Shown here one piece after another: positions 4,576-20,472 of a stretch of 35,818 nucleotides of DNA. Source of the stretch: Vulcanimicrobiaceae bacterium (GTDB lineage Bacteria; Vulcanimicrobiota; Vulcanimicrobiia; Vulcanimicrobiales; Vulcanimicrobiaceae). The notes beneath the pieces are model-generated. The model had not been told where the DNA came from and did not search any database. It was given only the letters and a program-made list of their open reading frames with translations. The DNA lies in contig JBHEMM010000012.1 of assembly GCA_046262595.1 (NCBI GenBank), positions 407 through 36,224 of the forward strand. The letters are read 5' to 3'. How positions within the stretch are numbered: the stretch's first letter is position 1; every line of letters begins with the position of its first letter. The position numbers and the translations under genes were made by a program.

Positions 4576-5295
4576 TCACGGTAGCGTGAGGCCGATCCCG
4601 GCGTAGGGACCGCTGCGAACCTCATTAGCGGGCGCAGTCCCGGCACTGCGCGTGTGGTCGCCGAGATAGCCGAGCTGCAGGAACAGTGGTGCGTGCTGCG
4701 ATGTTTTTAGCGTCACGCCCATATCGTAGCGGAGTTCGTGATACACGCCCTGGATGTTGGGATAGTAATATGCTCCGCCGTACAGGGAAAACGTTTGATC
4801 GGTGTCCGCGAGCTTTTCGGCGCCGAATCCTATCGCGTTCAGCCGCGGCGCGCCGTAATCGTTATTCCGGCGCAAATAGCTCACCGCAAGATAAAGACGC
4901 GGTTCGAGCACGCGCAATCCGGCGCGCACATCCACTTCCTCATCCGCTGGGATGGCGGTTCCGGTGGCATCGGAGTAATGAAACAGCCGGTAATCCACGG
5001 CAACCAGGCCGGTGAGTGACTGCCCCAGCGGAAGCTCCGCAGCGCCGCGGAAGTAATGCGATCCGTATCGCGTGCCGGCGGAGCATGACACGGCCGTAAG
5101 CTGGTTGCAGACGATCGCCGGAATCAGGTATCCGCCGCTAACGAAGACCTCGCGTTTCGTGATCGGCGGCATCGCCGGCGGCATGCTTACCGCCGGGTTC
5201 GGCGTCGGCCCGGTTTTCGGAACTTGCGCGTGCGCAACCGACGGAAGAAGCGCAAGCGATCCAAAAGCGGCGATGGCTAAGACGATGCGGTTCAT
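4576..5295 (-). CDS. Exported hypothetical protein, possible outer-membrane beta-barrel
   Basis: ATG 5295 overlaps the DUF4331 stop (ATGA); signal peptide ending AHA-Q, Pro-rich linker, aromatic alternating beta-strand pattern, C-terminal GPYAGIGLTLP. Confidence 0.6.
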   Translation of the reverse strand: MNRIVLAIAAFGSLALLPSVAHAQVPKTGPTPNPAVSMPPAMPPITKREVFVSGGYLIPAIVCNQLTAVSCSAGTRYGSHYFRGAAELPLGQSLTGLVAVDYRLFHYSDATGTAIPADEEVDVRAGLRVLEPRLYLAVSYLRRNNDYGAPRLNAIGFGAEKLADTDQTFSLYGGAYYYPNIQGVYHELRYDMGVTLKTSQHAPLFLQLGYLGDHTRSAGTAPANEVRSGPYAGIGLTLP

Positions 5296-6662
5296 TGCGG
5301 CGCTCCTAAGTACGGGAAGTCTGCGGTGACGTGTTTGTGCGGTTTCACGTTGTCGCTCGTTAAGCACGGCGTCTCGCGATTGTCTTCGTGCGCTAGTCCG
5401 AGCTTAGGCATCAGACTGCCGTAGATCGCCCCCAGCGAAAGATCGATAACGGGACTGCTCGCATCGCGTCCGCCGAAGTGACGGTAGGAATCGCCCAGGG
5501 CTTTCTTGATGCCGTAGATGCCCGCCGGCGGTACTGCGCGCACCACGGCAACCGGGAATCCACTCTTTGCGTTCGTTTCGACGGCGAGATAGCGCGCCGG
5601 TCCGCTTGCGCTAAGGTCGGCGCGAATCGTATCCGGAATGAGCGTGTGCACTAAACCATCAGCGACGGACTCCGAACGGCCGGCGCCCGTGGGCTTGGGC
5701 CGCATGACGAACGCTTTGATCGAATCTGCTAAGACTTGGTCATCCAGAATATCGCTGCGATTCGTGACGTCGTGATTGCGGAAATCTTCCGTCGCCTCTT
5801 TAACGGCCGGGCGCGCAAGGCGTTCGACTTGCGAATAGACGGCATCGGTGCCGGCGGACGGGCCGGGCACGCGCGTATTGGCGTTCTTCGTGACGTCTTC
5901 GATGCGTTCCACAGCGGAATCGGGGCGCACATCGGGATCGCTTTCCGATAGCGAGGTGGTCGCCCACACGTTGATAATGCCGAGGTGGCCGTCGCTCTGC
6001 GCCAGCATGCGTCGCGGCATCTCAACCACGAGTGCGAGCACGTTGTAGCCTTGCAAAAAGTCGATACCGGGTTTGCGGAAACAGTCGGCAGTCGGCGCAG
6101 GCGGGTTCGGCTGGTTCTTATAGTTACGATCCGGAATGATCTTGAAGAACTGCGCGAGGTCGAAATAAAACGGATCTTCGCGCGGGCCTGCGAACGCCGT
6201 CACGCCGTTCCGGAGGCTTGTCACCTGGTTATACGGCATTGAACCGGCCGGCGCGACGAACGTCGAACGCGTGCCTTGCATATTTGGTGCAGCGGGACCG
6301 TACATCGTAATCTTTTGATCAGCATCGGACCCGTCGGCTTTGAACTGCACGACGTACGCGGCGTGATAGTCGTCACCTAACCCGATTTTGAACTGATACA
6401 TGACGCCCGGATCGAAGAGCTTGGTGGCGCCTTGTCCGCTGGGAATCAGCGGCCACACGTCCATCGCGAGCACCACGTTGTTTCTGTTGTGCGGGCTTGG
6501 AAAGACGAAGACGTCGGTAATGTCGGTGCCGGGGCGCGATACGGTTAGCGGCGAATCTTGGTGGTCTGAGGCCGGCGCGGTTCGCGGCAGATATAAGAAC
6601 ACTGCGGCCACGGCCAACACGAGGCCGACAATCGGCGCAACAACATATGAGATCCGTTTCAT
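5292..6662 (-). CDS. DUF4331-family exported protein, full-length (fused N and C halves)
   Basis: ASDHQDSP, DITDVFVF, FAGPREDPFYFDL, QVERLARPAV, terminal FPYLGAPQ; N-terminal hydrophobic signal. Confidence 0.85.
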   Translation of the reverse strand: MKRISYVVAPIVGLVLAVAAVFLYLPRTAPASDHQDSPLTVSRPGTDITDVFVFPSPHNRNNVVLAMDVWPLIPSGQGATKLFDPGVMYQFKIGLGDDYHAAYVVQFKADGSDADQKITMYGPAAPNMQGTRSTFVAPAGSMPYNQVTSLRNGVTAFAGPREDPFYFDLAQFFKIIPDRNYKNQPNPPAPTADCFRKPGIDFLQGYNVLALVVEMPRRMLAQSDGHLGIINVWATTSLSESDPDVRPDSAVERIEDVTKNANTRVPGPSAGTDAVYSQVERLARPAVKEATEDFRNHDVTNRSDILDDQVLADSIKAFVMRPKPTGAGRSESVADGLVHTLIPDTIRADLSASGPARYLAVETNAKSGFPVAVVRAVPPAGIYGIKKALGDSYRHFGGRDASSPVIDLSLGAIYGSLMPKLGLAHEDNRETPCLTSDNVKPHKHVTADFPYLGAPQ

Positions 6663-6669
6663 TCCCGCT

Positions 6670-6697
6670 TAACGCCGATGGAGCGGCAACGGATTGC
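6670..6697 (-). promoter_or_regulatory. Putative ECF-sigma promoter (GCAATCC-N16-CGTTA), leaderless, for the fused DUF4331 gene
   Basis: Minus strand reads GCAATCC gttgccgctccatcgg CGTTA agcggga ATG; resembles ATCC...CGTA-type ECF promoters. Confidence 0.45.
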
Positions 6698-6814
6698 GTT
6701 GCCTAACAAAATATATGGAAGCGCGTTATCGCGCACGAACCGTGCGATCCATCGACGCCCGTTAAAGCAACCGGGTGATTGGCGAAAAGCAAGCGCACAG
6801 AAGACACGTGCCCG

Positions 6815-6841
6815 TGATCCGCCGCGTATGTCCCGTCCGTC
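6815..6841 (+). promoter_or_regulatory. Putative ECF-sigma promoter (TGATCC-N17-CGTC) for the transporter/DUF4331/TPR operon
   Basis: TGATCC 6815-6820 and CGTC 6838-6841; mirrors the divergent element. Confidence 0.35.
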
Positions 6842-6935
6842 TGTATCATACGGATGCAAAAATATTTTCCAATAGCACAATCCAAACACCGCCGCGGCCC
6901 GTTGATGCGGTAATTCACCAACGAAAAGGGGCCGT

Positions 6936-8423
6936 ATGCGTCCACTGCGCGCAGTTTGGGTTTGTTTGCTGTTGCTTCTCGCCGGAACCGTTTCGGCTGC
7001 GGCGCATCCGCTGGGCAACTTCACGATCAACCATCTGGCAAAGATCACGGCTCGCGACGGCGGCCTGCGCGTTCGCTACGTGCTCGACATTGCGGAAATT
7101 CCGGCATTTCAAATCATGCAGTCGCGCGGTGGTGCGTGGAGCGCGCGAACGCTTCAATCCTGGGCGAACGATGAAATTGCGCCGGTTCGCGACAATCTCG
7201 CCGTGACGTCGGACGGCCGGCGCGTGGCGCTAATCGCCTCGCCGCCCCACGCATCGTTGCGTCCCGGCGCCGGAGGCTTGCCGATCCTGCGCTGGGTTGA
7301 CGATTTTTCCGCCCCGCTCTCTGCCGGCAAACACGCGCTTGCGGTGCAAGACCGCGTTTACGCCGACCGGCGCATCGGATGGAAAGATTTGATCGCCGGA
7401 TCCCAGACCGAGCCGACGGACGAGTTGCAGCGCTATCCCAGCGCGCTCATCGGTACGCCGCGGCGCGTGAATTCGCTTGCGTTCACGGTGGACGGCAACG
7501 CGATCTCGCACATCGTCGCGGTAAACGATGAAACGCCGCTGATCGCGTCGGCTGCGTCGTGGCTCCAGCCTGCGATGCTTTCGAACATGTTCGCGCGCCC
7601 TTCACAGACGCCGGCGTTTGTGCTGCTGACGATTTTGCTGGCGTTCGCGCTGGGCGCGCTCCACGCCGTCGAGCCCGGCCACGGAAAGGCACTGCTTGCG
7701 TTCACGCTGGTCGGTTCGCGCGCTACGGCCAAACAGGCGCTCATTCTCGCGCTATCGCTTACATTTGCTCATACGCTGGGCGTGTTTCTGCTGGGCTTGG
7801 CACTGTTCTCCGTGAGCGGCTTTGTTTCCGAATCGATCTATCCGTGGATCACGCTCATTTCGGGCGTCGTGATCGCCTTCATCGGCGCGCGTTCGCTCGT
7901 GCGGTTTTTCCGCAGACACGACCACGACCACGAGCACGGGACGCACTCGCACAACCACGCGATCGCCGGCACGCAGCCGCTGCACTTCGGCAACGCGGTG
8001 TGGGCGGCGATGAGCGGCGGCATTGCGCCGTGCCCGGCGGCGATCGTGGTTCTGCTGGCTGCGCTTCGGCTGCACCATTTAGGATACGGCATGCTGCTCA
8101 TCGTCGTGTTCAGCATGGGTCTTGCGACGGTTCTCAGCGCTCTTGGCTTGAGCGTCGTTCATGGTGCCGCATGGTTGTCGCGACGCTCTTCCTATACGCG
8201 CATTGCGCCGTTTAGTCCGCTCATCACCGCAAGCGTGATCTCCGTTCTGGGATCCGTCATGCTCGCACAAGGCCTTCATCAAGAAGGAGCCGGCGCGCCG
8301 GTTCCGTTGCTTGCCGCGCTTATTCTCGGCGCCATTGCGGCTGTTGCGTTCGCGCAGCACACCCGCCCGCACTCGCACACGCACTCGCACGTGCACACCC
8401 TCTCATTGGAGCAGTTGCCATGA
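6936..8423 (+). CDS. RcnA/NicO-like Ni/Co transporter with an N-terminal exported domain
   Basis: Signal peptide then HPLGNFTINH; membrane domain with HAVEPGHGK, His-rich loop HDHDHEHGTHSHNH, PCPAA, and His-rich C-tail. Confidence 0.85.
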   Translation: MRPLRAVWVCLLLLLAGTVSAAAHPLGNFTINHLAKITARDGGLRVRYVLDIAEIPAFQIMQSRGGAWSARTLQSWANDEIAPVRDNLAVTSDGRRVALIASPPHASLRPGAGGLPILRWVDDFSAPLSAGKHALAVQDRVYADRRIGWKDLIAGSQTEPTDELQRYPSALIGTPRRVNSLAFTVDGNAISHIVAVNDETPLIASAASWLQPAMLSNMFARPSQTPAFVLLTILLAFALGALHAVEPGHGKALLAFTLVGSRATAKQALILALSLTFAHTLGVFLLGLALFSVSGFVSESIYPWITLISGVVIAFIGARSLVRFFRRHDHDHEHGTHSHNHAIAGTQPLHFGNAVWAAMSGGIAPCPAAIVVLLAALRLHHLGYGMLLIVVFSMGLATVLSALGLSVVHGAAWLSRRSSYTRIAPFSPLITASVISVLGSVMLAQGLHQEGAGAPVPLLAALILGAIAAVAFAQHTRPHSHTHSHVHTLSLEQLP

Positions 8424-9193
8424 AAAAACGCCTTACCGGTGTGGTTGCTGCGATTGCCCTTGCGGCAAGCGCACTGACGCTGTACACCGTTCATCCGACG
8501 CTCGCGTCGGATCACCAGGACTCACCCGTGACGCTCGCGCGTCCCGGCGCAGATATCACCGACCCGTACATCTTCCCGAGCCCGACCAATCCGAACAACG
8601 TGGTGATCGTCATGAACGTTCATCCGCTGATTCCGAGCGGACAGGGGCCGAGCACATTCTTCGACCCGGGCGTCGTCTATCAGATGAACTTCGACACGAC
8701 CTCGGAGAATGGTTCCACATTTCCCGCGCAGACGATTACGCGCAATCGCGTGATCCAGTTCAAATTCGGACAAGCCGGAACGAATCAAAGCGTGACCGTT
8801 TACGGTCCGGCCGCCGCGCCGACCACCGGCACGACGACGACGCTGACCGGTGCGGCGAGCGGAACCGGCACGATCAACACGCCGTTTACCGCCGGCTCGA
8901 TGCAAGTGTTTGCAGGCGCACGCGAAGATCCGTTCTTCTTCGACCTGGCGCAGTTCTTCAAAATACTTCCCGATCGCAATGCAGGCAGCACCGCGCCGAG
9001 CTGCTTGCCCACGCCCCTTGGCGGCAACAACACCTGCCCGCAGGGCTTTAATCCACCCGGTACCGCGACGGACACCTTAAAAGGATTCAACGTCCTTGCC
9101 ATGGTCGTCGAATTGCCGCGAACCGCGCTGCAAGGCGGCGGCGGATCAAAAATCGCGTTTTGGGTTTCCACCCACACGGTCTCGGGCCGTTAG
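8420..9193 (+). CDS. DUF4331-family exported protein, N-terminal half only
   Basis: Signal peptide, ASDHQDSP, DITDPYIF, FAGAREDPFFFDLAQFFKILPDRN; collinear with the first half of 5292-6662. Confidence 0.85.
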   Translation: MKKRLTGVVAAIALAASALTLYTVHPTLASDHQDSPVTLARPGADITDPYIFPSPTNPNNVVIVMNVHPLIPSGQGPSTFFDPGVVYQMNFDTTSENGSTFPAQTITRNRVIQFKFGQAGTNQSVTVYGPAAAPTTGTTTTLTGAASGTGTINTPFTAGSMQVFAGAREDPFFFDLAQFFKILPDRNAGSTAPSCLPTPLGGNNTCPQGFNPPGTATDTLKGFNVLAMVVELPRTALQGGGGSKIAFWVSTHTVSGR

Positions 9194-9202
9194 GAGTATC
9201 AC

Positions 9203-9874
9203 ATGAAACAGATTGCAAAACTCATTGGTACGGCTGCCGTATGCGCCGTCGCGTTCACCGGATGCCTGGGCGGCAACGGGGGCGGCAACGGAACGAACCC
9301 GGCGGGCCCGTCATCGTATCAGCAATTAGATCGTCTGAACCGTCCCGCGGTCAACGAAGTCTTCGCCTCGTTTGCGCAGCATCAGCAAAACAACGTGGAT
9401 CTGCCGAGCGACGATCCGGCGGTCCTTAAACCCGAAATCGTCGCGTTCATGACGAACGTTGCCGGCCGCCGCGCCGACATTGCGAACGTCGAAGGAACCG
9501 TGCTCACCCCCGACGTGCAAATTGCGGACCTGAGCGGCACGAGCACGTCGTGCATCGGAACGGCGCCCGGCACATGCAACAACTATCTCGGCGTTGAAAC
9601 AGGCGGCGCAACGCAGGCGCCCGGGGCGCTCAAGCCGTTCGGCGGCCGCGCGCTGACCGACGACATCGTCGACATCTCGCTCTCCACGATCTTCGGCTCA
9701 ACGATTCCGGCCTTACGGCTCGTGCCGACGGACGATAACAAGGAACAGGACGGGCGCGCGGATTCGTCCTTTCCGAGCGGTCACCGGCCGCAACTCACGA
9801 CCGACGGCGTGAGCTGGCAGACCGCCCCGAAACACTTCACGACGTCGTTCCCGTATCTGGGCGCGCCGCAGTAG
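9203..9874 (+). CDS. DUF4331-family C-terminal-half protein, predicted lipoprotein
   Basis: SD AGGAG; lipobox-like FTGC; QLDRLNRPAVNE, FGGRALTDD, FPYLGAPQ. Confidence 0.8.
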   Translation: MKQIAKLIGTAAVCAVAFTGCLGGNGGGNGTNPAGPSSYQQLDRLNRPAVNEVFASFAQHQQNNVDLPSDDPAVLKPEIVAFMTNVAGRRADIANVEGTVLTPDVQIADLSGTSTSCIGTAPGTCNNYLGVETGGATQAPGALKPFGGRALTDDIVDISLSTIFGSTIPALRLVPTDDNKEQDGRADSSFPSGHRPQLTTDGVSWQTAPKHFTTSFPYLGAPQ

Positions 9875-11103
9875 TGAAAAGCCTGCCCGGGTGGACGGTT
9901 CTTGCAGCGATCGCGCTTGCCGCGATCGCTGCGTGGCCGTTGATGCCGCATACCGCTCGTGCGTCCTCGGGCGCGTATGTGGCGCCCGTGCAGCCGGACT
10001 ACGCGCTGCGCGATCAGACCGTCGCGTTCTACGAAAAACGTGTACGTGATGACCGGCGCGATCAAATCAGCGCCGCTCTGCTGGGCGGCCAATATATGCA
10101 GCGCTACCGTGAATCGGGCGATGTCGACGACATCACGCGTGCGCTTGCGCAAGCGCAGCGCGCGCTCAAACTTCAACCGCAGAACAACGCGGGCGCGGAA
10201 GGCCTTATCGGCTCCGCGTACACGGCTCTGCATAAGTTCCGCGACGCTCTGCGCTACGAAACGCTCGCGCATGCCGAACAGCCGTACGACTCGAATGCAC
10301 CCGCGCAAATGGCCTCGCTCGACATGGAACTGGGCCGCTACGGCCCCGCGAAGATCATGCTTTTCAAAGCCGCAGCGATAAGGAACACGCCGACGGTTAT
10401 GGCTGTCCGGGCGCGGTACGAAGAACTCACAGGTCATCTGGATCGCGCGGCGCGTCTGCTGCAGCGCGCGATGGAAGAGACCGACGGCAACTACGACAAC
10501 AGCGCTCAAGGCCGCGCTTGGTATCATTTCCGGTTGGGCGAGGTGCTTTTTGAATCGGGCGATATGGCCGGAGCGCAGAAGCGCGAGCGGGAAGCGATCG
10601 CCATTTTTCCGAACCTGGAACTTGCGTACCGGGCGCTCGCGCGCGATTGCTTCTACGCCAACGATTGGCGCTGCGCGCTGGACGCGGGAACCAAAGGCGC
10701 CAACATCATTCCGGTACCGGAGACGCTCGGTTATAAAGCCGATGCGCAGCAAGCCCTGGGCGATGCGGCCGGCGCCGCGCAAACGCGGCAACTGATCGGC
10801 GCGATCGAGCGCATCGGAAACGCGTATCATCTGAACGATCGTTTGCTTGCAATGTACTACGCCGATCACCATCTGCGCCCGGATGACGCCTATCGTATCG
10901 CGCAGCGCGAAGTGGCATTGCGCGGCACGGAGATCTATGCGCAGGATACGCTCGCGTGGGCGGCAGCGATGGACGGCAAATGGGATGTCGCACAACGTGC
11001 GGCAAAGCGTGCGGCGCGCTACGGCACGCAGGACCCGCGCATCACATATCACGCGCGGTACATCGCGCAGCACCGCAGCCCCACTCACCCCCAGGGGCGT
11101 TAG
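9874..11103 (+). CDS. Exported tetratricopeptide-repeat protein
   Basis: Signal peptide; repeated Ala-rich helical TPR-like units; DTLAWA motif; TAGTG overlap with the upstream gene. Confidence 0.85.
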   Translation: MKSLPGWTVLAAIALAAIAAWPLMPHTARASSGAYVAPVQPDYALRDQTVAFYEKRVRDDRRDQISAALLGGQYMQRYRESGDVDDITRALAQAQRALKLQPQNNAGAEGLIGSAYTALHKFRDALRYETLAHAEQPYDSNAPAQMASLDMELGRYGPAKIMLFKAAAIRNTPTVMAVRARYEELTGHLDRAARLLQRAMEETDGNYDNSAQGRAWYHFRLGEVLFESGDMAGAQKREREAIAIFPNLELAYRALARDCFYANDWRCALDAGTKGANIIPVPETLGYKADAQQALGDAAGAAQTRQLIGAIERIGNAYHLNDRLLAMYYADHHLRPDDAYRIAQREVALRGTEIYAQDTLAWAAAMDGKWDVAQRAAKRAARYGTQDPRITYHARYIAQHRSPTHPQGR

Positions 11104-11105
11104 AT

Positions 11106-12224
11106 ATGGCTCGCGCTTTCACGGTTTCCGCTCTTGCACACGTGGCCCGGTGCGCGGTCCCGGGCGTGCGGCGCAGCGTAGCACAGATATATCTTTTTCT
11201 CACGCTGCTGAATGCTGCGGCGTGGGTGTTGGCATTCGTTGCCTTTTCGGGCAGGCCGATTCTGATCGGTGCGGCATTGCTCGCATACACTTTCGGTTTG
11301 CGTCATGCCGTCGACGCCGATCATATTTCGGCAATCGACAACGTTACGCGCAAACTGATGCACGAGCGAAAGCAGCCGGTCACCGTCGGCTTGTTCTTCT
11401 CGCTTGGACACTCGACGGTCGTTGTCGCGCTTTCCGTCGCGATTGCGGCCGGCGCGGCGTTCATGAAAGTGCATCTGCCTGGGCTGCAAAGCGTGGGCAC
11501 GGTGGTCGGAACTTCGGTTTCGGCCGGTTTCCTCTTAGTAATTGCCGCAATCAATATCTTGGTGCTAAGCGATATCGCACGCGCTTTCCGCCGCGCGCAT
11601 GACGGCGAATCGTTTGACGAGGCCGGCTTGAACGCCGTGCTCGATCAGCGCGGATTGATGGGCCGGCTGTTCCGTCCGCTTCTGAAGATTGCCGACGCGC
11701 CGTGGAAGATGTATCCGGTCGGCCTGCTTTTCGGCCTGGGGTTCGATACGGCGACGGAAGTGGGATTGCTCGGCATTGCCGCTGTTCAAGGCGGAAAGGG
11801 ATTGCCGGTCTACGACATTCTGATCTTTCCGCTCCTTTTCACGGCGGGAATGTGCCTGTTGGACACCACCGACGGCATTTTAATGCTTCGTGCATACGGC
11901 TGGGCTTTCGTCAAGCCGATGCGCAAGCTGTACTACAACATGGTCATCACGCTGGTGTCGGTTCTCGTGGCGCTCGTCATCGGTGGCATTGAAGCGTTAA
12001 ACGTGATTTCGTCGCAGCTCCATTTGGACGGCATGTTTTGGCGCGCCGCTGCGGGTGCCGGGGCGCAGTTCGGCACGCTGGGGTTCATTGTGGTGGGCAT
12101 TTTTCTGGGAAGCTGGGCCGTCTCGACGATCGTGTATAAGGTCAAGCGCTACGACGAGTTGGACCTCGTGGCGGAGCCCGCCGGCCTGCAGCGGGGCGGC
12201 GGCCGGCCGGCCAAGGCCGCTTAA
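11106..12224 (+). CDS. HoxN/HupN/NixA high-affinity nickel/cobalt permease (NiCoT)
   Basis: GLRHAVDADHISAID, FFSLGHSTVV, LFGLGFDTATE, GMCLLDTTDG. Confidence 0.95.
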   Translation: MARAFTVSALAHVARCAVPGVRRSVAQIYLFLTLLNAAAWVLAFVAFSGRPILIGAALLAYTFGLRHAVDADHISAIDNVTRKLMHERKQPVTVGLFFSLGHSTVVVALSVAIAAGAAFMKVHLPGLQSVGTVVGTSVSAGFLLVIAAINILVLSDIARAFRRAHDGESFDEAGLNAVLDQRGLMGRLFRPLLKIADAPWKMYPVGLLFGLGFDTATEVGLLGIAAVQGGKGLPVYDILIFPLLFTAGMCLLDTTDGILMLRAYGWAFVKPMRKLYYNMVITLVSVLVALVIGGIEALNVISSQLHLDGMFWRAAAGAGAQFGTLGFIVVGIFLGSWAVSTIVYKVKRYDELDLVAEPAGLQRGGGRPAKAA

Positions 12225-12262
12225 GCGTCGGATGTTTAGCGTTTAGCAACGCTGCGCGAGCA

Positions 12263-12271
12263 TGTTATACT
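12263..12271 (+). promoter_or_regulatory. Extended -10 promoter (TGnTATACT) for the dusB operon, very short leader
   Basis: TGTTATACT ends 10 nt before ATG 12282; no SD. Confidence 0.6.
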
Positions 12272-12281
12272 ACTGCTCGCC

Positions 12282-13292
12282 ATGTCCGCAACGTTCGAGC
12301 CACTGGTTATCGGCCCGCACCGCATTTCGCCCCCGCTCGTGCTGGCGCCGATGTCGGGCGTGACGAACCGCACCATGCGGGCGCTTTATAAGCCGTTCGG
12401 TCTGGGCTTGACGGTCACGGAGTTCGTTTCGGCCAACGCGCTGCAGTACGCCTCAAGCGCAAAGCGCACCATGGAGATGATCGACCAGCACGGCTTGGAA
12501 AAGCCGGTCAGCACGCAGCTCTGGGGCGACGATCCGGTGGTCATGGCCGAAGCGGCGAAAGTCGTGCGCGAATGCGGCGCCGATATCGTCGACATCAACT
12601 TCGGTTGCCCGGCTCCGAAAATTACCAAGACGAACGGCGGCTCGGCGTGCCTGCGCGACGTGGACCGCTGCGAGGCGATCATGCGCGCCGTGGTGGAGGC
12701 CGTGGATTGCCCGGTCACGATGAAGATGCGTTTGGGCTGGAGCGAAGACGCCCTGGTCTATATCGAGGTTGCGCAGCGCGCGCAAGCCGTGGGCGTGCAG
12801 GCCGTCACGCTGCATGCGCGGACGGCGCGGCAATTCTATAAGGGCAGCGCCGACTGGGGCCACATCAAGCGTTTGAAAGAAGCGGTCGCCATTCCGGTGA
12901 TCGGCAACGGGGACATTCAGGATGCGCAGACGGCCGTTGCCCGCATGCGTGAGAGCGGTGTCGACGGCATCATGCTCGGCCGCGCAACGCTGGGCAACCC
13001 GTGGCTCATCTCGCAGATACGCGATCTGATGGAAGGACGCGAGGCCTCGCAGCCGCCGTCCGCCGCCGATCGGTTGCGCTACGCGATCCGCGTGCACTTC
13101 AAAACCATGGTTGCCGAACTCGGCGAAGCGCGCGCCGTGCCGCAGATGCGCAAACATCTGGCGTTGTATTTGAAAGGCATACCCGGCGCCGCGATGCTGC
13201 GCGAGCGCATCATGCATCTCGATCGCGCGCAAGACGTTGAGACGGTGGTCGAAGAAACCATTGCCTCGCTGGAACGCGCGCTCGCGGCATGA
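12282..13292 (+). CDS. dusB: tRNA-dihydrouridine synthase B
   Basis: LAPMSGVT, DINFGCP, TMKMRLGW, HART, IGNGDI, GRATLGNPW. Confidence 0.92.
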   Translation: MSATFEPLVIGPHRISPPLVLAPMSGVTNRTMRALYKPFGLGLTVTEFVSANALQYASSAKRTMEMIDQHGLEKPVSTQLWGDDPVVMAEAAKVVRECGADIVDINFGCPAPKITKTNGGSACLRDVDRCEAIMRAVVEAVDCPVTMKMRLGWSEDALVYIEVAQRAQAVGVQAVTLHARTARQFYKGSADWGHIKRLKEAVAIPVIGNGDIQDAQTAVARMRESGVDGIMLGRATLGNPWLISQIRDLMEGREASQPPSAADRLRYAIRVHFKTMVAELGEARAVPQMRKHLALYLKGIPGAAMLRERIMHLDRAQDVETVVEETIASLERALAA

Positions 13293-14530
13293 CCTTATTC
13301 GACGAAACGTACGAAAACTACAAGGAATACGTCAATCCGCCGCTCGCGCGCGTGATGAAACTTTCCGGCAGTCCGGTTGAAGTGCGCGCGCAAGGCTGCA
13401 CGATTTGGGATCACAACGGCAAAGAGTACCTTGACTTCGCCGGCGGTTACGGGGTGTTCACGCTCGGGCACTCGCATTCGAAGATCCTTGCCGCGGTCAA
13501 AGCGCAGATGGATTTGATGTCGCTCTCGGGCAAAACGATGTTCAACATCATGCTCGGACGCGCGTCGAAACGGCTCGCCGAGCTTGCGCCGGGTGATTTG
13601 AAGATTTCGTTTTTTGCCAACAGCGGCACGGAGGCGGTTGAGGGCGCGATCAAACTCGCGCGGGCAGCGACCAAGCGGCGCAAGATTGTGGCAACGCACA
13701 ACGCGTATCACGGCAAGACGCTGGGCGCGCTTTCCGCGAGCGGGCGCGATTACTTCAAGGACCGCTATTCGCCGCTGCTTGCCGACGTCGCGCATGTCGC
13801 ATACGGCGACGTAGCGGCTCTGGACGCGCAACTGCACGACGCCGCCGCGTTCATCGTGGAGCCCGTGCAAGGCGAGGGCGGTGTGAACGTTCCTCCCGAA
13901 GGCTACTTGCGCGAAGTGCGTGCTGCGTGCGACGCGGCCGGCGCGCTGCTGATTGCCGACGAAGTGCAGACGGGTCTGGGGCGCTGCGGCTACTTGTTCG
14001 GATGCAACCGCGACGGCGTCGTGCCCGACGTGATGACGCTTGCCAAGGGCCTCTCCGGCGGCGTCATTCCGGTCGGCGCGTATATCGCGCGTCCTTCGGT
14101 TTGGAAGGCCGCGTACGCGAAAGATCCGGTCATGCACACCTCGACGTTCGGCGGCGGCGAGCTGGCCTGCGCGGCGGCGCTCGCGGCGATGCATGTGCTG
14201 ATCGAAGACAATCTCGTGGAGTGCGCGCGGGCGCGCGGCGAACAGCTGCTCTCGGGCGCACAGGCGCTCGCGAGACGCTTTCCGGCGGTGATCAAAGAGG
14301 CGCGCGGCCTGGGTTTGCTGGTCGGCGTGGAACTCACGAGCGAAGGCTACGGCGGCTGGATCATTCCCGAGATGGTCAAACGCGGCGTAACTGCCGCCTG
14401 GACGCTCAACATGCAGCGCGTTATCCGGCTCGAACCGCCGCTGGTGGTGACCGCCGCCCAGGTCGAGCGGGCGCTCGCAGCGCTGGAAGCAGGGCTGTCC
14501 ACCGCCCAAGAGAAGCTCGGCGCCCTGTAA
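13289..14530 (+). CDS. Class III PLP aminotransferase (putrescine/omega-transaminase-like)
   Basis: GGYGVFTLGH, NSGTEAVE, YHGKT, EPVQGEGG, ADEVQTGLGR, LAKGLSGG, HTSTFGG. Confidence 0.93.
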   Translation: MTLFDETYENYKEYVNPPLARVMKLSGSPVEVRAQGCTIWDHNGKEYLDFAGGYGVFTLGHSHSKILAAVKAQMDLMSLSGKTMFNIMLGRASKRLAELAPGDLKISFFANSGTEAVEGAIKLARAATKRRKIVATHNAYHGKTLGALSASGRDYFKDRYSPLLADVAHVAYGDVAALDAQLHDAAAFIVEPVQGEGGVNVPPEGYLREVRAACDAAGALLIADEVQTGLGRCGYLFGCNRDGVVPDVMTLAKGLSGGVIPVGAYIARPSVWKAAYAKDPVMHTSTFGGGELACAAALAAMHVLIEDNLVECARARGEQLLSGAQALARRFPAVIKEARGLGLLVGVELTSEGYGGWIIPEMVKRGVTAAWTLNMQRVIRLEPPLVVTAAQVERALAALEAGLSTAQEKLGAL

Positions 14531-14533
14531 CCG

Positions 14534-14971
14534 ATGCCATACGTTGAAACGTCGATCATCATCGCAGCTTCCGCCCGCGTGGTGTACGAGCTTGCAAAAG
14601 AACAGGAACGCTTTCCGCAATTCATGCCGGACGTCGAAGCCGTGACCGTGCTCGAACGTCATCCCGGCCACATTTTGACGCGCTGGAAAACGCTGGTCGA
14701 AGAAGCGCCGATCGAGTGGATCGAAGAAGACCGTTTCGACGACGCCGCGCTGCGCATCGATTACAAGCTGCTCGAAGGCGATCTCGATAAGTTCGAAGGG
14801 GCGTGGACGTTCGCGGAAGCGTCGGGCAAAACGACGGTGACGCTCGGCGTAGACTTCGATTTCGGCGTGCCGACGCTCGCCGAGCTCATCGGCCCGACGC
14901 TCGAACGCAAAGTTCGCGAAAACAGCGAGATGATGCTGCTGGCAATCAAACGCGAAGCGGAGGCAGCATGA
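14534..14971 (+). CDS. SRPBCC / polyketide-cyclase-like (START-fold) ligand-binding protein
   Basis: 145 aa; VYELAKEQERFPQFMP, EGDLDKFEGAW, C-terminal helix. Confidence 0.85.
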   Translation: MPYVETSIIIAASARVVYELAKEQERFPQFMPDVEAVTVLERHPGHILTRWKTLVEEAPIEWIEEDRFDDAALRIDYKLLEGDLDKFEGAWTFAEASGKTTVTLGVDFDFGVPTLAELIGPTLERKVRENSEMMLLAIKREAEAA

Positions 14972-16104
14972 GCCGCGCAACGTTGAACGCCACGCCGAAG
15001 TTTTGTTTTGTCGTGCATCCGCTCTCGCTTGACGACATCGTTCGCTACGAGCCCAGCGCCAAAGGCAAAGGCCCCGCGATCGTGCGCAAAATCATGGAAT
15101 GGATGCCTTCTTGGGCGGCCGTGCATGTTACCGGTGTTCGCGCGCCGGACGGCCGTGAGACCGAAGGCTGGTTTGTCTCCGCCGCGCTGCTGCCCGAGCA
15201 AATGCTCGATTTTCCGCGCGAAGAAGTGTACAAGCGCATCGTTCGCGCCATCGAAATCGGTGCGGAACTTGGAGCCGGCGTCGCGGGACTGGGCGCATTT
15301 ACCGGTGTGGTCGGCGATGGCGGCGTAACGGTTGCCGCGCGTTCTCCTATTCCGGTGACAACCGGCAATTCGCTCACCATTGCCGCCGGCGTGCAGAGCT
15401 TATTCCGGGGTGCGCGCGAGATGAACATTGACGCCGAAGAAGCGACGGCGGTCGTCGTCGGCGCAACCGGCTCGATCGGCTCCGCGTGCGTGCATCTCGT
15501 CGCTCCGCACGTCAAGCACGTGATCCTTGTCGCGCGTAACAAGACGCGGCTTGCAAAATTCCACGAATCGATCAGCGATTCGCTGCCGTGCTCGTCCTCG
15601 TATACGACCGGCATATCACAAGCGGTTCGCCAAGGGCAATTGATCCTCACCGCGACGAGTTCCACGCAAGACGTCATCGAACCGGAAGATTTGCAGACCG
15701 GCGCGGTTGTGTGCGAACTCTCGTTACCGCACGATGTGAGCCGGCGCGTCGCCGAACTTCGTCCCGACGTACTCGTCACGGAAGGCGGAAACATGCTGGT
15801 TCCGGGCGACGTCCGCTTTGATCGCGTGCGCGAGCCGGGGAAAGCGTGGGACACGAACCTTCCGCCGCGGACGGCGCTGGCTTGCATGAGCGAAACGATG
15901 GTGCTGGCGCTTGAGAACCGCCTGGAATGTTACACGCTGGGCCGCGGCATCGACCTGCAAAAAGTGATCGACATCCAAGCCATGGCTGAACGCTGCGGCT
16001 TTAAGCTTGCGGACATGCGCGCCTTCGACGCGGCGATTACACCGGAGAAGATTGCCGCAATCCGTGCAGCTGCGGACGAACGGCGCAAGAGCGCAGTGGC
16101 ATGA
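14968..16104 (+). CDS. Long-chain acyl-ACP/CoA reductase-like protein (cyanobacterial AAR / TamH reductase-domain-like)
   Basis: LGAFT, TTGNSLT, Rossmann VVGATGSIG, catalytic-Cys motif LACMSETMVL; ATGA overlap. Confidence 0.8.
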   Translation: MSRATLNATPKFCFVVHPLSLDDIVRYEPSAKGKGPAIVRKIMEWMPSWAAVHVTGVRAPDGRETEGWFVSAALLPEQMLDFPREEVYKRIVRAIEIGAELGAGVAGLGAFTGVVGDGGVTVAARSPIPVTTGNSLTIAAGVQSLFRGAREMNIDAEEATAVVVGATGSIGSACVHLVAPHVKHVILVARNKTRLAKFHESISDSLPCSSSYTTGISQAVRQGQLILTATSSTQDVIEPEDLQTGAVVCELSLPHDVSRRVAELRPDVLVTEGGNMLVPGDVRFDRVREPGKAWDTNLPPRTALACMSETMVLALENRLECYTLGRGIDLQKVIDIQAMAERCGFKLADMRAFDAAITPEKIAAIRAAADERRKSAVA

Positions 16105-17009
16105 AGCGCGTCGTATCGGTTTCATTGGGGAGCAGTTCGCGCGACCATCACGCGCAGGTCAATCTGCTCGGCGAGCAGTTCGATATCACGCGCACGGGGA
16201 CGGACGGAAAACTGGATGCCGCGATCGCGAAAGTAAAAGAGCTCGACGGGGAAGTTGACGCGATCGGCCTGGGCGGCATCGACGTTTATCTGTACGCGGG
16301 CAAAAAACGCTATGCGCTGCGCGACGGCTTACGTTTGCTCGAGGCAGCAAAACTCACGCCCGTCGTTGACGGCAGCGGATTAAAAAACACCCTCGAGCGC
16401 GAAGCCGTGCGTTTCATGCAAGACGAAATGGGCATCGATCTGAAAAACAAGCACGTGCTCATGGTGAGCGCCTTGGACCGCTTCGGCATGGCGCAGGCCC
16501 TGGTGGACGCGGGTGCGGATGTGCTCTTCGGCGATTTTATTTTCGCACTCGACTTGGACAAGCCGGTCAAGGGCTTGCATGAGTTCGAAGAGATGGCCGA
16601 AAAGTATTTGCCCGACGCGTGCAAGCTGCCGTTCCAGTTCTTCTATCCGACCGGCAAAAAACAAGACAAGCCGCCCGAACCAAAGTATCCGCAGTATTAC
16701 GAAGAAGCGGACATCATTGCCGGCGACTATCACTTCATGCGCCAGTTCATGCCCGATTCGCTTGCCGGAAAGATCGTGCTGACGAACACCGTGACCGAGG
16801 CGGACGTGGAGGAGCTGCGTAAGCGCGGCGTCTCAACGTTAATCACGACGACGCCCGACTTCCAAGGTCGTTCGTTCGGCACGAACGTCGTCGAAGCAGC
16901 GCTGCTTGCGCTGCTCGGCAAAAAGTGGGACGAAGTCACGTCGGCTGATTACGAACGATTGCTGGGCGATCTGCAGCTGCGGCCGCGTGTTGTGCAACTT
17001 TCGTCATGA
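16101..17009 (+). CDS. Conserved uncharacterised protein (family I recall being auto-annotated as 'quinate 5-dehydrogenase'; function unverified)
   Basis: KRVVSVSLGSS.RD, DAIGLGG, VVDGSGLK.TLER, TNTVT, GRSFGTNVVEA; ATGA overlap. Confidence 0.7.
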   Translation: MKRVVSVSLGSSSRDHHAQVNLLGEQFDITRTGTDGKLDAAIAKVKELDGEVDAIGLGGIDVYLYAGKKRYALRDGLRLLEAAKLTPVVDGSGLKNTLEREAVRFMQDEMGIDLKNKHVLMVSALDRFGMAQALVDAGADVLFGDFIFALDLDKPVKGLHEFEEMAEKYLPDACKLPFQFFYPTGKKQDKPPEPKYPQYYEEADIIAGDYHFMRQFMPDSLAGKIVLTNTVTEADVEELRKRGVSTLITTTPDFQGRSFGTNVVEAALLALLGKKWDEVTSADYERLLGDLQLRPRVVQLSS

Positions 17010-17014
17010 CGTAG

Positions 17015-18187
17015 ATGCAGCTGTTCGATCCGGCAGAACACGAGCCGCTCTCTTCCAAACCGTGGAACGATACCATTGCATGCGATTTCATTTGCGATGT
17101 CGTATCGGCAGCAGATTTGTCCTTCGATCCCGCGCTTGGCTGGCCGATGCATCCCGAAGACCGGTACGGTGAGGAACCGCGGCCGCTGGACCGCGGCGTC
17201 TATTCGGGGCTCTGCGGCACCGCGTGGACGGTTTCTAAGCTGGCAGCGTCGTACGGCATGACGCTGCGCAACAACTATGCCGCCGCAGTGCAAGCTGCCG
17301 CTGCCGAGATGCAGGTCCCTTCGTTTTTCATGGGCCGGGCCGGCGCATACGCGTCATGGTACGCAATTGCCAAGGAAGAGCAAGCCCTTGATGGCATTGA
17401 GGCCGCGGTGCAGGAAAACGCGGGCAACGTAACCCACGAGATGTTTTGGGGATCGCCCGGCAGCGCGATTGCGGCGCTGCTGGTGCGCGAATTTTCCGGA
17501 ACGACGCGCTTTGACGGCCTGTTGCGAGCCGTCCAGAACGAAATGTGGGACTCGTGGCGCAGCGGTGAAGAAGATGCCGCTCTGCTGTGGGTGCAAGACA
17601 TGTACGGACGGCGCCAATTTTACGTCGGAGCCGGGCACGGCGCATTCGGAAATCTCACCGTCTTTGCGCGCGCTATCGATCTGCTGTCGCCGAGCCGGCG
17701 CAATGAGCTGCACGAACGCGTCGTTGCGCTGCTCGATCGTTACGTTCTTCGTGACGGCGATGCGGCGAATTGGTTTTCCCTGGGTGACCCACTATCGGGC
17801 AACCGTATGCAATGGTGCCATGGGGCGCCCGGCGCTATCATAAGCCTGTCGGCATACCCCACCGTCGATCGCCATATCGAAACCCTTTTGAAAGCGGGCG
17901 GCGAAGGTATTTGGCGGGCAGGCCCGATCCGCAAAGGTCCGGGTCTGTGCCACGGAACCGCGGGCAATGGTTACGCCTTGCTGCGCCTGGCGCAGCGAAC
18001 CGGAGATGCGGTCTGGCTCGAACGCGCGCAGCGTTTCGCTATGCACGCTATCGAGCAGGCTGCGCGCTGGCGTGTTGAGTTCGGAATGCGTTCGTACAGC
18101 TTATGGACCGGCGAACTTGGTGTTGCAGCATTTGCCGACAGTGTGCTGCGGCACGATGCGGCGTTTCCCGCACTCGAGCTTTTGTAG
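17015..18187 (+). CDS. LanC-like (lanthionine synthetase C-like) protein, stand-alone
   Basis: GAGHGAFG, QWCHGAPG, GLCHGTAGNG (Zn-ligand Cys, Cys-His), SLWTG. Confidence 0.88.
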   Translation: MQLFDPAEHEPLSSKPWNDTIACDFICDVVSAADLSFDPALGWPMHPEDRYGEEPRPLDRGVYSGLCGTAWTVSKLAASYGMTLRNNYAAAVQAAAAEMQVPSFFMGRAGAYASWYAIAKEEQALDGIEAAVQENAGNVTHEMFWGSPGSAIAALLVREFSGTTRFDGLLRAVQNEMWDSWRSGEEDAALLWVQDMYGRRQFYVGAGHGAFGNLTVFARAIDLLSPSRRNELHERVVALLDRYVLRDGDAANWFSLGDPLSGNRMQWCHGAPGAIISLSAYPTVDRHIETLLKAGGEGIWRAGPIRKGPGLCHGTAGNGYALLRLAQRTGDAVWLERAQRFAMHAIEQAARWRVEFGMRSYSLWTGELGVAAFADSVLRHDAAFPALELL

Positions 18188-18464
18188 CGGCGCTCATTTC
18201 TACCGGCGCCGCGCTCCGGGCCCTCGGCCGCGTCGGACGAACCGCCGCCGGGTGCGCACGGGAACTTTTGCGCCTCTTGCGGGGTTGATCACCCTTACCG
18301 GCGCAGCGGCAACCGCGGTTCCCTTCGCCGCTCCGGCGGGAAGCTAAAGTGTCGGAAAAGTTGCAGGCCAGCTACCCGGGCACTGCGAACCAACCGCGCT
18401 GGCATTAAAGACTCTCCGGCCGTTTTAAGCCGGACCCTTACTTACTGCACTCGAGGTCCATCAG

Positions 18465-18977
18465 TTGAACGAGAAAGAGATCGTCCTCACCGCGGAAGGC
18501 CTGGAAAAGCTCGAACACGAGCTCGACGACCTGAAATCCGTGCATCGCCGCGAGGTCAACGACCGTATTCGCCAGGCCAAAGAGTTCGGCGACCTGAGCG
18601 AAAACGCCGAATATGAGGACGCCAAGCAGGAACAGGCGTTCATTGAAGGCCGCATCCTCAAGCTCGAATCCATGATCCGCAATGCGCGCCTGATCAACGA
18701 GGCCGAATACGCCGCGGACGAAGTGCATCTCGGCTCGATCGTCAAGGTGAAAGACCTCAAGACGAGCGCCGCGCACGAGTTTTCGATCGTCGGTTCCGCT
18801 GAAGCGGACCCGGTTAACGGCAGGGTGAGCAATGAGTCGCCCTTAGGCCGCTCGCTTATCGGCCATAAGAAGGGTGAGAGTGTGGACGTGTCCACGCCGC
18901 GCGGCATCGCAAAATACAAGATTGAATCGATAAAAAGCGGGAGTGGTCTGAAACGAGCCGCTAAGAAAGCTTCTTGA
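18465..18977 (+). CDS. greA: Transcription elongation factor GreA
   Basis: GDLSENAEYEDAK, SNESPLG; TTG start with SD GAGGT. Confidence 0.96.
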   Translation: MNEKEIVLTAEGLEKLEHELDDLKSVHRREVNDRIRQAKEFGDLSENAEYEDAKQEQAFIEGRILKLESMIRNARLINEAEYAADEVHLGSIVKVKDLKTSAAHEFSIVGSAEADPVNGRVSNESPLGRSLIGHKKGESVDVSTPRGIAKYKIESIKSGSGLKRAAKKAS

Positions 18978-18981
18978 AGCC

Positions 18982-20472
18982 ATCGAGGACCTAGGCAACT
19001 CCGAGAAAGCATTAATAGCGGCCAGACGTGAAAATCTGGCCGCTATGCGTTCGCGCGGTTGTGACCCGTTCGCGCAGACCCGTTACGACGTCGATACGAA
19101 CGTCGCCGAGCTCCTCCAGAAGTACGCCTTCCTCGTCACCGGTGAAAAGGCTGAAAGCGAAGACTGGTCGATCGCGGGGCGCATTGTGTCCAAACGCGAC
19201 ATGGGCAAGACCATCTTCGCCGATCTGACCGACCGCACCGGACGCGTTCAGCTCTATATCCGTAAAGACGAGGCCGGCGAGGAGCGCTTCGCCGATTGGA
19301 AAGACGCCGACATCGGCGACATCGCGGGCGTTCGCGGCTTTCTGTTCCGCTCGCAAAAGGGCGAACTCTCACTGCACGTCAAGTCGTTTGCGATTCTGAC
19401 GAAGTCGCTCTATCCGCTTCCCGACAAATGGCACGGGCTCACCGATGTGGAGAAGCGCTACCGCCAGCGGTACGTCGATCTGATCGTGAACCCGCCGGTG
19501 CGGGACTCGTTCGTCATGCGCAGCCGCCTGCTGGCGGAGATGCGCCGTTTCATCGACTCCCACGGCTTCCTTGAAGTCGAAACGCCGACCCTGCTGCACG
19601 TTGCGGGCGGCGCCGCCGCCCGGCCGTTCGTCACGCACGTGAACGCGCTGGATCAGGCGATGCAGCTGCGCATTGCAACGGAACTGAATCTCAAGCGGCT
19701 TATCGTCGGCGGCATGGAGCGCGTCTACGAAATCGGACGCATCTTTCGCAACGAAGGCATCGACACGACGCACAATCCCGAGTTCACGATGCTCGAACTG
19801 TACGCGGCATATTGGAACGTCCACGACATGAGGGAGTTCAACGAAGCGCTGGTCGCGCATCTGGTTTCCGTCGTGACCGGCGGCAAGGACGAGCTGCGCA
19901 TTGGCGCGCACGACGTTTCCTTCAAGCGCCCGTTCGCGCGGGTTGAGTATTTGGAAGGCATTGCGGCGCACGGCGGCTACACGCGCGAACAGCTGCTCAG
20001 TCCGGACGGCGCTGCCGGAATACTGAAGGCCCTGGCGTTGCCGCCCTCGCCGACGCACGGCCACGCGCTCGATAAAATTTTTGAGCGCGTCTTGGAGCCG
20101 AAGCTCACGCAGCCGACCTTCGTTACGGGCTACCCGGTCATTATCTCTCCGCTTGCCAAACGGCGAGACGGAGATCCTGATATCACGGACCGCTACGAGC
20201 TGTTTTGCACGTCCATGGAAATCAGCAACGCGTTCACCGAGCTGAACGATCCCGACGATCAACGTGCGCGCTTCGAAGCGCAGATGGCCGAACGCGCGCA
20301 AGGTGATGAAGAAATTCCCGAACCCGATTGGGACTTCGTTCGCGCGCTGGAATACGGCATGCCGCCCACGGCCGGCATCGGTATCGGCGTTGACCGGCTC
20401 GTGATGCTGCTCACGAATAATCCCAGCATCCGGGACGTCATCCTGTTTCCACTGCAGCGCCAGCACGGCTGA
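18982..20472 (+). CDS. lysS: Lysine--tRNA ligase, class II (start uncertain; first ATG at 19045)
   Basis: YRQRYVDL, GGAAARPF, LRIATEL, FRNEGID, HNPEFTMLE, YGMPP, GIGVDRL. Confidence 0.97.
   Translation: MEDLGNSEKALIAARRENLAAMRSRGCDPFAQTRYDVDTNVAELLQKYAFLVTGEKAESEDWSIAGRIVSKRDMGKTIFADLTDRTGRVQLYIRKDEAGEERFADWKDADIGDIAGVRGFLFRSQKGELSLHVKSFAILTKSLYPLPDKWHGLTDVEKRYRQRYVDLIVNPPVRDSFVMRSRLLAEMRRFIDSHGFLEVETPTLLHVAGGAAARPFVTHVNALDQAMQLRIATELNLKRLIVGGMERVYEIGRIFRNEGIDTTHNPEFTMLELYAAYWNVHDMREFNEALVAHLVSVVTGGKDELRIGAHDVSFKRPFARVEYLEGIAAHGGYTREQLLSPDGAAGILKALALPPSPTHGHALDKIFERVLEPKLTQPTFVTGYPVIISPLAKRRDGDPDITDRYELFCTSMEISNAFTELNDPDDQRARFEAQMAERAQGDEEIPEPDWDFVRALEYGMPPTAGIGIGVDRLVMLLTNNPSIRDVILFPLQRQHG

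Follow-up and report, generated by a model that had tools for sequence, protein, structure and literature searches.

What do a class III aminotransferase, a small START-like protein, a predicted reductase and a protein of no described family do side by side? The question is raised by positions 13289 to 17009 of the stretch analyzed here, 35,818 nucleotides of contig JBHEMM010000012.1 from an uncultured soil bacterium of the Vulcanimicrobiaceae (hereafter the window), where four genes form a compact cassette. In the following, the aminotransferase is called AT3, the AAR-like reductase RED, and the 302-amino-acid protein UNK. In the cassette, an enzyme logic already known from other systems is spread over four separate proteins, a split form that is new and is used in primary metabolism. 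Judging from the sequences and the modeled folds, the module very probably carries out the chemistry that leads from a thioester through an aldehyde to an amine. The fuller reading, in which the four genes are a split version of the PigE/TamH reaction pair that runs as a housekeeping pathway and supplies an amine for a membrane lipid, is the one that we favor, with some reserve. The genes of the cassette are the following.

13289-14530, + strand: AT3, class III (omega-type) aminotransferase of the YgjG/PigE-C subfamily, 413 amino acids (PF00202)
14534-14971, + strand: SRPBCC/START-like small protein, 145 amino acids (Polyketide_cyc, Polyketide_cyc2)
14968-16104, + strand: RED, predicted acyl-thioester reductase of the AAR/PigE-N type, 378 amino acids (Shikimate_DH, 4.1e-09; PigE and AAR models)
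16101-17009, + strand: UNK, 302 amino acids, no described family, AAR fold (AlphaFold2 [AF2] model, structural match)

The length of RED is counted from the ATG at 14968; a longer GTG frame begins at 14803. A preliminary description of this DNA had the four genes joined by ATGA overlaps or a 3-nucleotide gap, and the junctions, read directly in the sequence, agreed with it. The TAA of AT3 (14528-14530) is followed by a gap of 3 nucleotides (14531-14533) and the ATG of the SRPBCC gene at 14534, and ATGA overlaps join the SRPBCC gene to RED (14968-14971) and RED to UNK (16101-16104).

AT3 and RED match the two halves of PigE

AT3 and RED were compared with profile and structure databases. Over profile positions 14-401 of 403, AT3 matched Pfam Aminotran_3 (PF00202; 2.6e-97, 326.5 bits against a cut-off of 30.5). 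The two proteins matched successive parts of a single NCBIfam model, that of PigE (NF053554): RED at positions 33-361 (2.3e-58, 198.2 bits) and AT3 at positions 377-730 (1.2e-123, 414.3 bits), both below the cut-off of 850. Likewise, in the PDB, RED matched residues 34-350 of PigE 4ppm (2.1e-35) and, at 2.5e-13, cyanobacterial AAR 6jzq, and AT3 matched Escherichia coli putrescine aminotransferase YgjG (8.7e-101) and residues 392-743 of PigE 4ppm (5.1e-87). The models of AAR (TIGR04058; RED, 3.9e-23, 82.3 bits against a cut-off of 449.7) and of putrescine aminotransferase (AT3, 426.3 bits against 612 for NF008570 and 374.6 bits against 658.65 for TIGR03372) were matched without their cut-offs being reached. 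By sequence comparison, then, RED and AT3 are relatives, not equivalogs, of AAR, PigE and putrescine aminotransferase, and RED is closer to the N-terminal thioester-reductase half of PigE than to cyanobacterial AAR. The earlier reading of the locus as a split TamH-like reductase/transaminase module held up, since the pair matches the two halves of one PigE model and of 4ppm, and reading the pair as a split PigE/TamH is sound. The stretch TLAKGLSGG of AT3 aligns with CLAKALGGG of YgjG, and its lysine is presumably the pyridoxal phosphate (PLP)-binding residue; AT3 is predicted to perform the step from aldehyde to primary amine.

The AF2 model of RED (predicted local distance difference test score [pLDDT] of 91) was superposed with VIA-align on AAR 6jzq with a Z score of 33.8 (324 of 340 residues, root mean square deviation of 3.0) and on the terminal amidation domain (TAD) of carmabin with Z 32.1, whereas the next unrelated fold reached 13.8. 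The motifs TTGNSLT, GATGSIG and LACMSE, named in the preliminary description, are all present in the translated RED. LACMSE aligns with FACFAE of AAR and "gCMaE" of PigE, and the catalytic cysteines are Cys294 in AAR and Cys296 in PigE (PMC9594044, PMC8341465). Moreover, C306, G165, G168, G171, T131, G133, N134 and R190 were invariant in 33 reductases from three phyla. RED thus has the two-domain AAR fold, the catalytic-cysteine position and the GxxGxxG motif (GATGSIG), and it is predicted to catalyze the step from thioester to aldehyde through Cys306. Its designation as an AAR-like reductase is borne out by the matches to PigE 4ppm and AAR, the Z score of 33.8, the invariant C306 and the glycine motif.

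The gene between AT3 and RED encodes a protein that matched Polyketide_cyc over its full length (PF03364; 8.7e-20, 71.7 bits against a cut-off of 23.4) and also Polyketide_cyc2 (4.5e-11). Its nearest solved chain, and its sole strong solved relative, was TTHA0849 of Thermus thermophilus (2d4r; E 1.2e-18, residues 1-141 on 1-141 without gaps); no paper on the neighbors of TTHA0849 was found. The SRPBCC gene lies 3' of AT3 in all 19 usable loci of the phylum and in 9 Actinomycetota genomes, and its product is predicted to bind a hydrophobic intermediate.

Thioester reduction followed by transamination of the aldehyde has been shown or argued for PigE and TamH (PMC8341465, PMC9594044). [quoted passage not shown] However, in PigE a single polypeptide begins with the reductase, whereas here there are two genes with AT3 first, the SRPBCC gene between them and UNK in addition; PigE also belongs to a pigment gene cluster and the present cassette to a phylum-wide core operon, and the scores lie far below the PigE cut-off. 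TamH, from the tambjamine YP1 pathway of Pseudoalteromonas tunicata, has its transaminase before its AAR-type reductase, the order found here, a likeness drawn from its published description and not from its sequence. TamH forms a C12 fatty amine (dodecylamine) from an acid bound to acyl carrier protein (ACP) (PMC9594044); unlike the cassette, it is a fused natural-product enzyme that needs its own carrier enzyme TamA and is accompanied by neither an SRPBCC protein nor an AAR-fold partner. A split route like the present one occurs in the tambjamine BE-18591 pathway of Streptomyces albus, where a stand-alone acyl-ACP reductase, TabE, and an omega-transaminase, TabA, give dodecylamine (bioRxiv 10.1101/2025.08.11.669332). 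TabE nevertheless belongs to the aldehyde dehydrogenase/LuxC family and not to AAR, and that route, part of secondary metabolism, relies on an editing thioesterase and on a carrier protein dedicated to it.

Cyanobacterial AAR itself (TIGR04058; 6jzq/6jzy) shares with RED the fold, the aligned cysteine, the nucleotide-binding motif and the ARN motif after the second strand. AAR passes its aldehyde to a deformylating oxygenase, whereas in the window's genome, which is 89.73% complete, a genome-wide search for that oxygenase (PF11266) found none, in line with the preliminary description; the same search matched the Synechococcus control. An alkane pathway was rejected because this oxygenase was not found. 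We know of no look-alike partner subunit of AAR.

UNK has the fold of the reductase and is predicted to be its partner

UNK matched nothing in NCBIfam, nothing in Pfam up to an E value of 10, no PDB sequence and, by tblastn, no plasmid. With E <= 0.001 as the limit, its family comprised 951 clusters. The label "quinate 5-dehydrogenase" is attached to it in some databases, and two cluster look-ups returned the same label, with Bacillota/Clostridia. The AF2 model of UNK (pLDDT 96.4) was best matched by AAR 6jzq (Z 14.0, 246 residues aligned), followed by the carmabin TAD (Z 12.1) and by amino-acid and shikimate dehydrogenases (Z 9-11). A fold comparison had been proposed earlier for both 14968-16104 and 16101-17009, and in both cases AAR was the best structural match, with Z 33.8 and 14.0. 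The carmabin TAD (9e4s), second-best structural match for both proteins, has the AAR fold and a catalytic cysteine, and its sequence is too distant from RED to show in a sequence search. It is a C-terminal nonribosomal peptide synthetase (NRPS) domain thought to make an amide (bioRxiv 10.1101/2024.10.28.620694).

No cysteine was found among the invariant or near-invariant columns of 56 UNK sequences. In a BLAST alignment that was not significant, the stretch opposite GATGSIG of RED reads SALDRFG in UNK, a hint that its nucleotide loop may have decayed. In the representative proteins P0265, P0308, P0376 and P0378, UNK is fused to a PigE-N-like reductase, and in 13 of 35 rows the UNK match begins right at the stop codon of RED. 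Prediction of a complex of RED and UNK gave a score of 0.15 against a mark of 0.32, in a comparison made without control runs. We predict that enzymes acting on acyl thioesters, RED among them, have in UNK a look-alike partner subunit. Accordingly, its earlier description as an uncharacterised protein stands as regards family matches but gives way, on the evidence of fold and fusions, to an AAR-fold partner of RED. A further protein, P0311 (762 amino acids), joins an acyltransferase of the BioF/KBL/serine-palmitoyltransferase type to a C-terminal UNK domain, and this fusion suggests that UNK may serve other acyl-thioester enzymes too. The module thus brings two unstudied partner proteins into view, one of them from a family of about 950 clusters mislabeled "quinate 5-dehydrogenase".

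The cassette is conserved across the phylum

Near-identical proteins carry the names Candidatus Baltobacteraceae, Vulcanimicrobiaceae and Candidatus Eremiobacteraeota; the source is therefore Eremiobacterota/Vulcanimicrobiota and not Deinococcus. RED was found in 40 of 41 relatives, and UNK, at 52-87% identity, in 149 of 151 genomes of the phylum, which places it among the best-conserved proteins there; these counts take in unpublished genomes, four for RED and one for UNK. Next, one locus was taken from each of 20 genomes that sample the breadth of the phylum, and the 20 loci were compared. One of them ends at a contig edge, and the 19 usable loci, from 19 other phylum genomes, all have AT3, SRPBCC, RED and UNK on one strand and in the same order. 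Of 12 further loci titled Eremiobacterota/Vulcanimicrobiota, 10 hold all four genes and 2 are cut at contig ends; among the 10, L092 comes from the same genome as L008, and L093 has broken frames. The four-gene arrangement is far beyond chance. The presence of RED in 40 of 41 relatives and of UNK in 149 of 151 genomes, together with the 19 collinear loci, is the reason why we assign the module housekeeping status. A thioester-to-amine chemistry known from pigment and antibiotic pathways appears here as a conserved core operon of an almost uncultured phylum.

Upstream of the cassette, dusB is found in the closer relatives only, and coaX takes its place in L014, L015 and L019. Downstream, greA-lysS follows nearly everywhere, in Eremiobacterota, Bacillota-type and Actinomycetota loci, and the two genes are a conserved border of the module across phyla. 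Two single loci were also noted. In L093 (3997-7813), from an Eremiobacteria assembly, the cassette is split into several frames, perhaps owing to gene decay or assembly error. In L013 (11399-14192), from a distant member of the phylum, two large genes of the PAP2_3 superfamily stand directly 3' of lysS.

UNK and RED form an older core outside the phylum

A scan of species genomes by one motif gave 472 confirmed UNK relatives, the best 80 of which were analyzed. No Deinococcota were among these 80 loci. Fifty were of Coriobacteriia type, with UNK alone, and the three of them that were read lay beside cytochrome c maturation genes. Another 18 were of Bacillota type, with the order coaX-dusB-UNK-(RED)-greA-lysS and RED adjacent in 8 of the 18. 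Since the Bacillota-type loci hold UNK, with or without RED, and within about 8 kb neither AT3 nor the SRPBCC gene, the old and widely conserved core is UNK plus RED, not the transaminase; a second pair, AT3 and the SRPBCC gene, joined it in Eremiobacterota. Four genomes with the UNK-RED core hold AT3-like genes elsewhere, at 45-47% identity. In addition, one Bacillota-type genome with a UNK locus encodes an 876-amino-acid aminotransferase-reductase fusion in the order of TamH (L111:320-2950, - strand). At another locus, a decayed RED relative of 311 amino acids follows UNK (L078:9018-9953, + strand), with 24% identity over 129 residues and the glycine motif replaced.

A close relative of AT3 was found in 27 of 151 sampled Actinomycetota genomes, at 29 loci. 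Six genomes have the order AT3-SRPBCC-CDP-alcohol phosphatidyltransferase, and three have AT3-CDP-alcohol phosphatidyltransferase, with AT3 directly after der-plsY-gpsA in L107. In three others the order is UNK-AT3-SRPBCC-RED-greA-lysS, and 17 loci have none of these partners within 1.5 kb. Four of the six genomes of the first kind were read further, and there a gene of the metallo-beta-lactamase (MBL) fold and a nucleotidyltransferase/phosphohexomutase fusion come next. Five of the six were searched for the remaining genes; RED was present in 5/5 and UNK in 4/5, and in four of them an adjacent RED-UNK pair stands at another locus. In a quick, provisional tree of AT3, 27 of 28 Eremiobacterota sequences and the three four-gene Actinomycetota rows fell on one side of a branch with a Shimodaira-Hasegawa-like approximate likelihood ratio test (SH-aLRT) support of 87. 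The strongest support for a role of the amine branch in a glycerophospholipid or phosphoglycolipid comes from these Actinomycetota neighbors.

A proposed route to a membrane lipid

In the pathway that we propose, RED would accept an acyl group on Cys306 from acyl-ACP or acyl-CoA, both phosphopantetheine thioesters, and release it as a free aldehyde upon reduction by NAD(P)H. UNK, a cysteine-less paralog of the same fold, would work together with RED, probably as a noncatalytic or substrate-docking subunit. The START-like SRPBCC protein may hold the hydrophobic aldehyde or pass it on, and the PLP-dependent AT3 would convert it into a primary amine, which would then become part of a membrane lipid. 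The candidate that can be named most specifically is an alkylamine lipid with an amide linkage, such as occurs in Deinococcus, Thermus and some Bacillota. Of these elements, we infer which substrate of which chain length is used, what the SRPBCC protein does, that RED and UNK make contact, and which lipid results.

That the amine ends in a membrane lipid is somewhat probable in our judgment. An unusual membrane lipid had been named as the destination in the preliminary description, and this part gains support from genomic context, namely the lipid-related and sugar-nucleotide neighbors in Actinomycetota and a gap among the phosphatidyltransferases. A Pfam family search of the window's genome found no CDP-alcohol phosphatidyltransferase (PF01066), and tblastn and home-made hidden Markov models found neither the Actinomycetota phosphatidyltransferase nor the MBL gene there. 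Within the class of the window, PF01066 occurred in 1 of 21 genomes, as a marginal match, and it is present elsewhere in the phylum. Of 14 control genomes, Deinococcus radiodurans was the only one without PF01066, and CdsA and phospholipase D-type genes are found both in D. radiodurans and in the window's genome. Conventional synthesis of phosphatidylglycerol, phosphatidylserine and phosphatidylethanolamine seems to be missing from this genome and its class.

Among the same 14 controls, the AAR model matched Thermus, Deinococcus, Synechococcus and Methanocaldococcus jannaschii only; E. coli, Bacillus subtilis, Caulobacter, Bacteroides, Thermotoga, Corynebacterium and Lactococcus gave no match. 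In one Atlas cluster of UNK look-alikes, Deinococcota are the commonest source, which serves as a lead only, and there are hints of Deinococcota relatives for three of the four cassette proteins. N-glyceroyl-alkylamine-type lipids have been known in Deinococcus since 1985. To our knowledge, no bacterial membrane lipids other than alkylamine phosphoglycolipids require a free long-chain alkylamine. N-glyceroyl alkylamine phosphoglycolipids are described from Deinococcus, Thermus and Meiothermus (PMC3398001, PMC3035268), and a report cited in PMC13274423 places alkylamine lipids in some Bacillota. No assignment of genes to the alkylamine part of these lipids was found in the literature searched, which covered few subscription journals. 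For Vulcanimicrobium alpinus, the one cultured member of the phylum, only unidentified polar lipids and four glycolipids are listed (PMC9758169), and this list fits an unconventional membrane.

We therefore put forward, tentatively, an N-glyceroyl-alkylamine-type lipid as the product. On the same tentative footing, the cassette could be the missing alkylamine-forming arm of the biosynthesis of such lipids, and membranes of the class Eremiobacteria could be built from them and not from conventional phospholipids. If the lipid reading is true, the cassette would point to genes that may form the alkylamine of the marker lipid of Deinococcus and Thermus, an unconventional membrane would be predicted for Eremiobacterota, and a lipid biomarker would be suggested for them; the module would also be a compact source of fatty amines for biocatalysis. 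The prediction lends itself to direct testing, since genetic work is feasible in Thermus thermophilus and one strain of Eremiobacterota has been cultured.

Several observations weigh against a pathway that ends in an alkylamine lipid. The 18 Bacillota-type loci have neither an aminotransferase nor an SRPBCC gene within about 8 kb, and because these and the Coriobacteriia-type loci have no linked transaminase, the UNK-RED core does not always feed one. Relatives of RED are commonest in clusters from Chloroflexota, Bacillota and Armatimonadota, and alkylamine lipids are not known to us from Chloroflexota or Armatimonadota. The best single match of AT3 is a putrescine aminotransferase. In the quick tree, the phosphatidyltransferase-linked AT3s fall in a sister clade (support of 95) together with enzymes encoded beside polyamine-type transporters; given this split, the two SRPBCC-linked groups of AT3 are not established as one orthologous set. 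Furthermore, the class of the window has no CDP-alcohol phosphatidyltransferase, so the Actinomycetota context is not literally transferable to it. The substrate of PigE is a medium-chain branched thioester, and homology to PigE consequently does not imply a long chain. Finally, the lipid list of V. alpinus includes no phospholipid or phosphoglycolipid spot, a misfit with a phosphoglycolipid of the Deinococcus type (PMC9758169).

Alternative explanations

The aldehyde formed by RED and UNK might have another fate, such as a fatty alcohol, an ether or another lipid, with AT3 a housekeeping enzyme in its own right that just happens to stand in the same operon. The Bacillota-type loci in which RED and UNK stand without a linked aminotransferase would agree with this, as would the five Actinomycetota genomes in which the two pairs occupy separate loci. 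Yet all 19 phylum loci keep a constant order with overlapping or nearly abutting start and stop codons, three Actinomycetota genomes also group these four genes, in another order, and RED and AT3 correspond to the halves of one natural fusion enzyme, with a TamH-like fusion of 876 amino acids in one Bacillota-type genome. We regard this alternative as unlikely. The amine might also be small and soluble, either beta-alanine for pantothenate and CoA (from a malonyl thioester through malonate semialdehyde) or a polyamine-type compound, as the putrescine aminotransferase match of AT3 would suggest. The window carries panC, coaBC and coaX in a row (1809-4529), coaX lies directly 5' of AT3 in L014, L015 and L019, and the aspartate decarboxylase PanD occurs in 1 of 61 phylum genomes as against 37 of 61 for panC. 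Supply of beta-alanine was nonetheless rejected because all seven panC-lacking genomes read (G058, G047, G050, G054, G059, G074 and G069) keep the four genes. In addition, G046 holds PanD and the cassette together, and the order coaX-dusB-greA-lysS recurs in Bacillota-type loci, so the CoA genes may be there by mere synteny. A START-like partner and the phosphatidyltransferase and plsY-gpsA neighbors seen elsewhere misfit any small soluble product, and the curated cut-offs for putrescine aminotransferase were not reached; a small amine is, in our view, quite unlikely.

We consider it very improbable that the cassette is a pigment or alkaloid module in the manner of pigE and tamH, possibly together with the LanC-like gene that begins 5 nucleotides downstream of UNK. 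Its closest characterized relatives, PigE and TamH, are indeed natural-product enzymes, but the module is nearly universal and syntenic across the phylum between dusB or coaX and greA-lysS, the flanks scanned held no polyketide synthase, NRPS, dedicated carrier protein or adenylation gene, and the LanC-like gene is absent at all other loci. A role for RED on an aminoacyl-tRNA ester, in the manner of glutamyl-tRNA reductase (GluTR) and followed by an aminomutase-like transaminase, would account for the conserved tRNA-related neighbors dusB, lysS and truA. RED has a weak similarity to GluTR (TIGR01035, 8.6e-09), and a parallel with the GluTR-GSAM pair is drawn in the PigE paper. However, the AAR fold matched RED with Z 33.8, as against Z 11.4-12.9 for GluTR, which matched in the nucleotide-binding domain only, and genomes of the Bacillota type have these neighbors as their ordinary housekeeping gene order. 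The genome also has a canonical hemA, scoring above its cut-off, at a different place next to another class III aminotransferase, and for this reason a substitute glutamyl-tRNA reductase was rejected. We hold action on a tRNA ester to be the most improbable of these proposals.

Neighboring genes

The cassette is part of a close-packed run of + strand genes from 12282 to 20472, whose other members are as follows.

12282-13292, + strand: dusB, tRNA dihydrouridine synthase B (TIGR00737, 356.6 bits against a cut-off of 293.3)
17015-18187, + strand: stand-alone LanC-like protein, 390 amino acids (Pfam LANC_like, 3.3e-37)
18465-18977, + strand: greA (GreA_GreB_N, 2.3e-27)
19045-20472, + strand: lysS (NF001756, 626.9 bits against a cut-off of 468)

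The dusB gene is coupled to AT3 by an ATGA overlap (13289-13292), read in the sequence; it is a conserved neighbor and not a constant member of the module. A promoter-like site was seen at 12243-12271, and such sites are no commoner than in shuffled sequence; the scan for promoters and terminators gave nothing above chance. The LanC-like gene was considered as a fifth member and rejected, as tblastn found none at the 20 phylum loci or at 80 further loci. This absence marks it as a local insertion outside the module. It is wedged between the cassette and greA, and no lanthipeptide precursor or dehydratase was present among the neighbors scanned.

Further upstream, DUF4331 genes, two NicO-like transporter genes and a tetratricopeptide repeat gene cluster at 5292-12224. 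One DUF4331 copy lies on the - strand (5292-6662). Two consecutive genes in the same frame, 8420-9193 and 9203-9874, correspond to the front and the back of the DUF4331 profile, and at the boundary between them a TAG is followed by GGAG and then by ATG.

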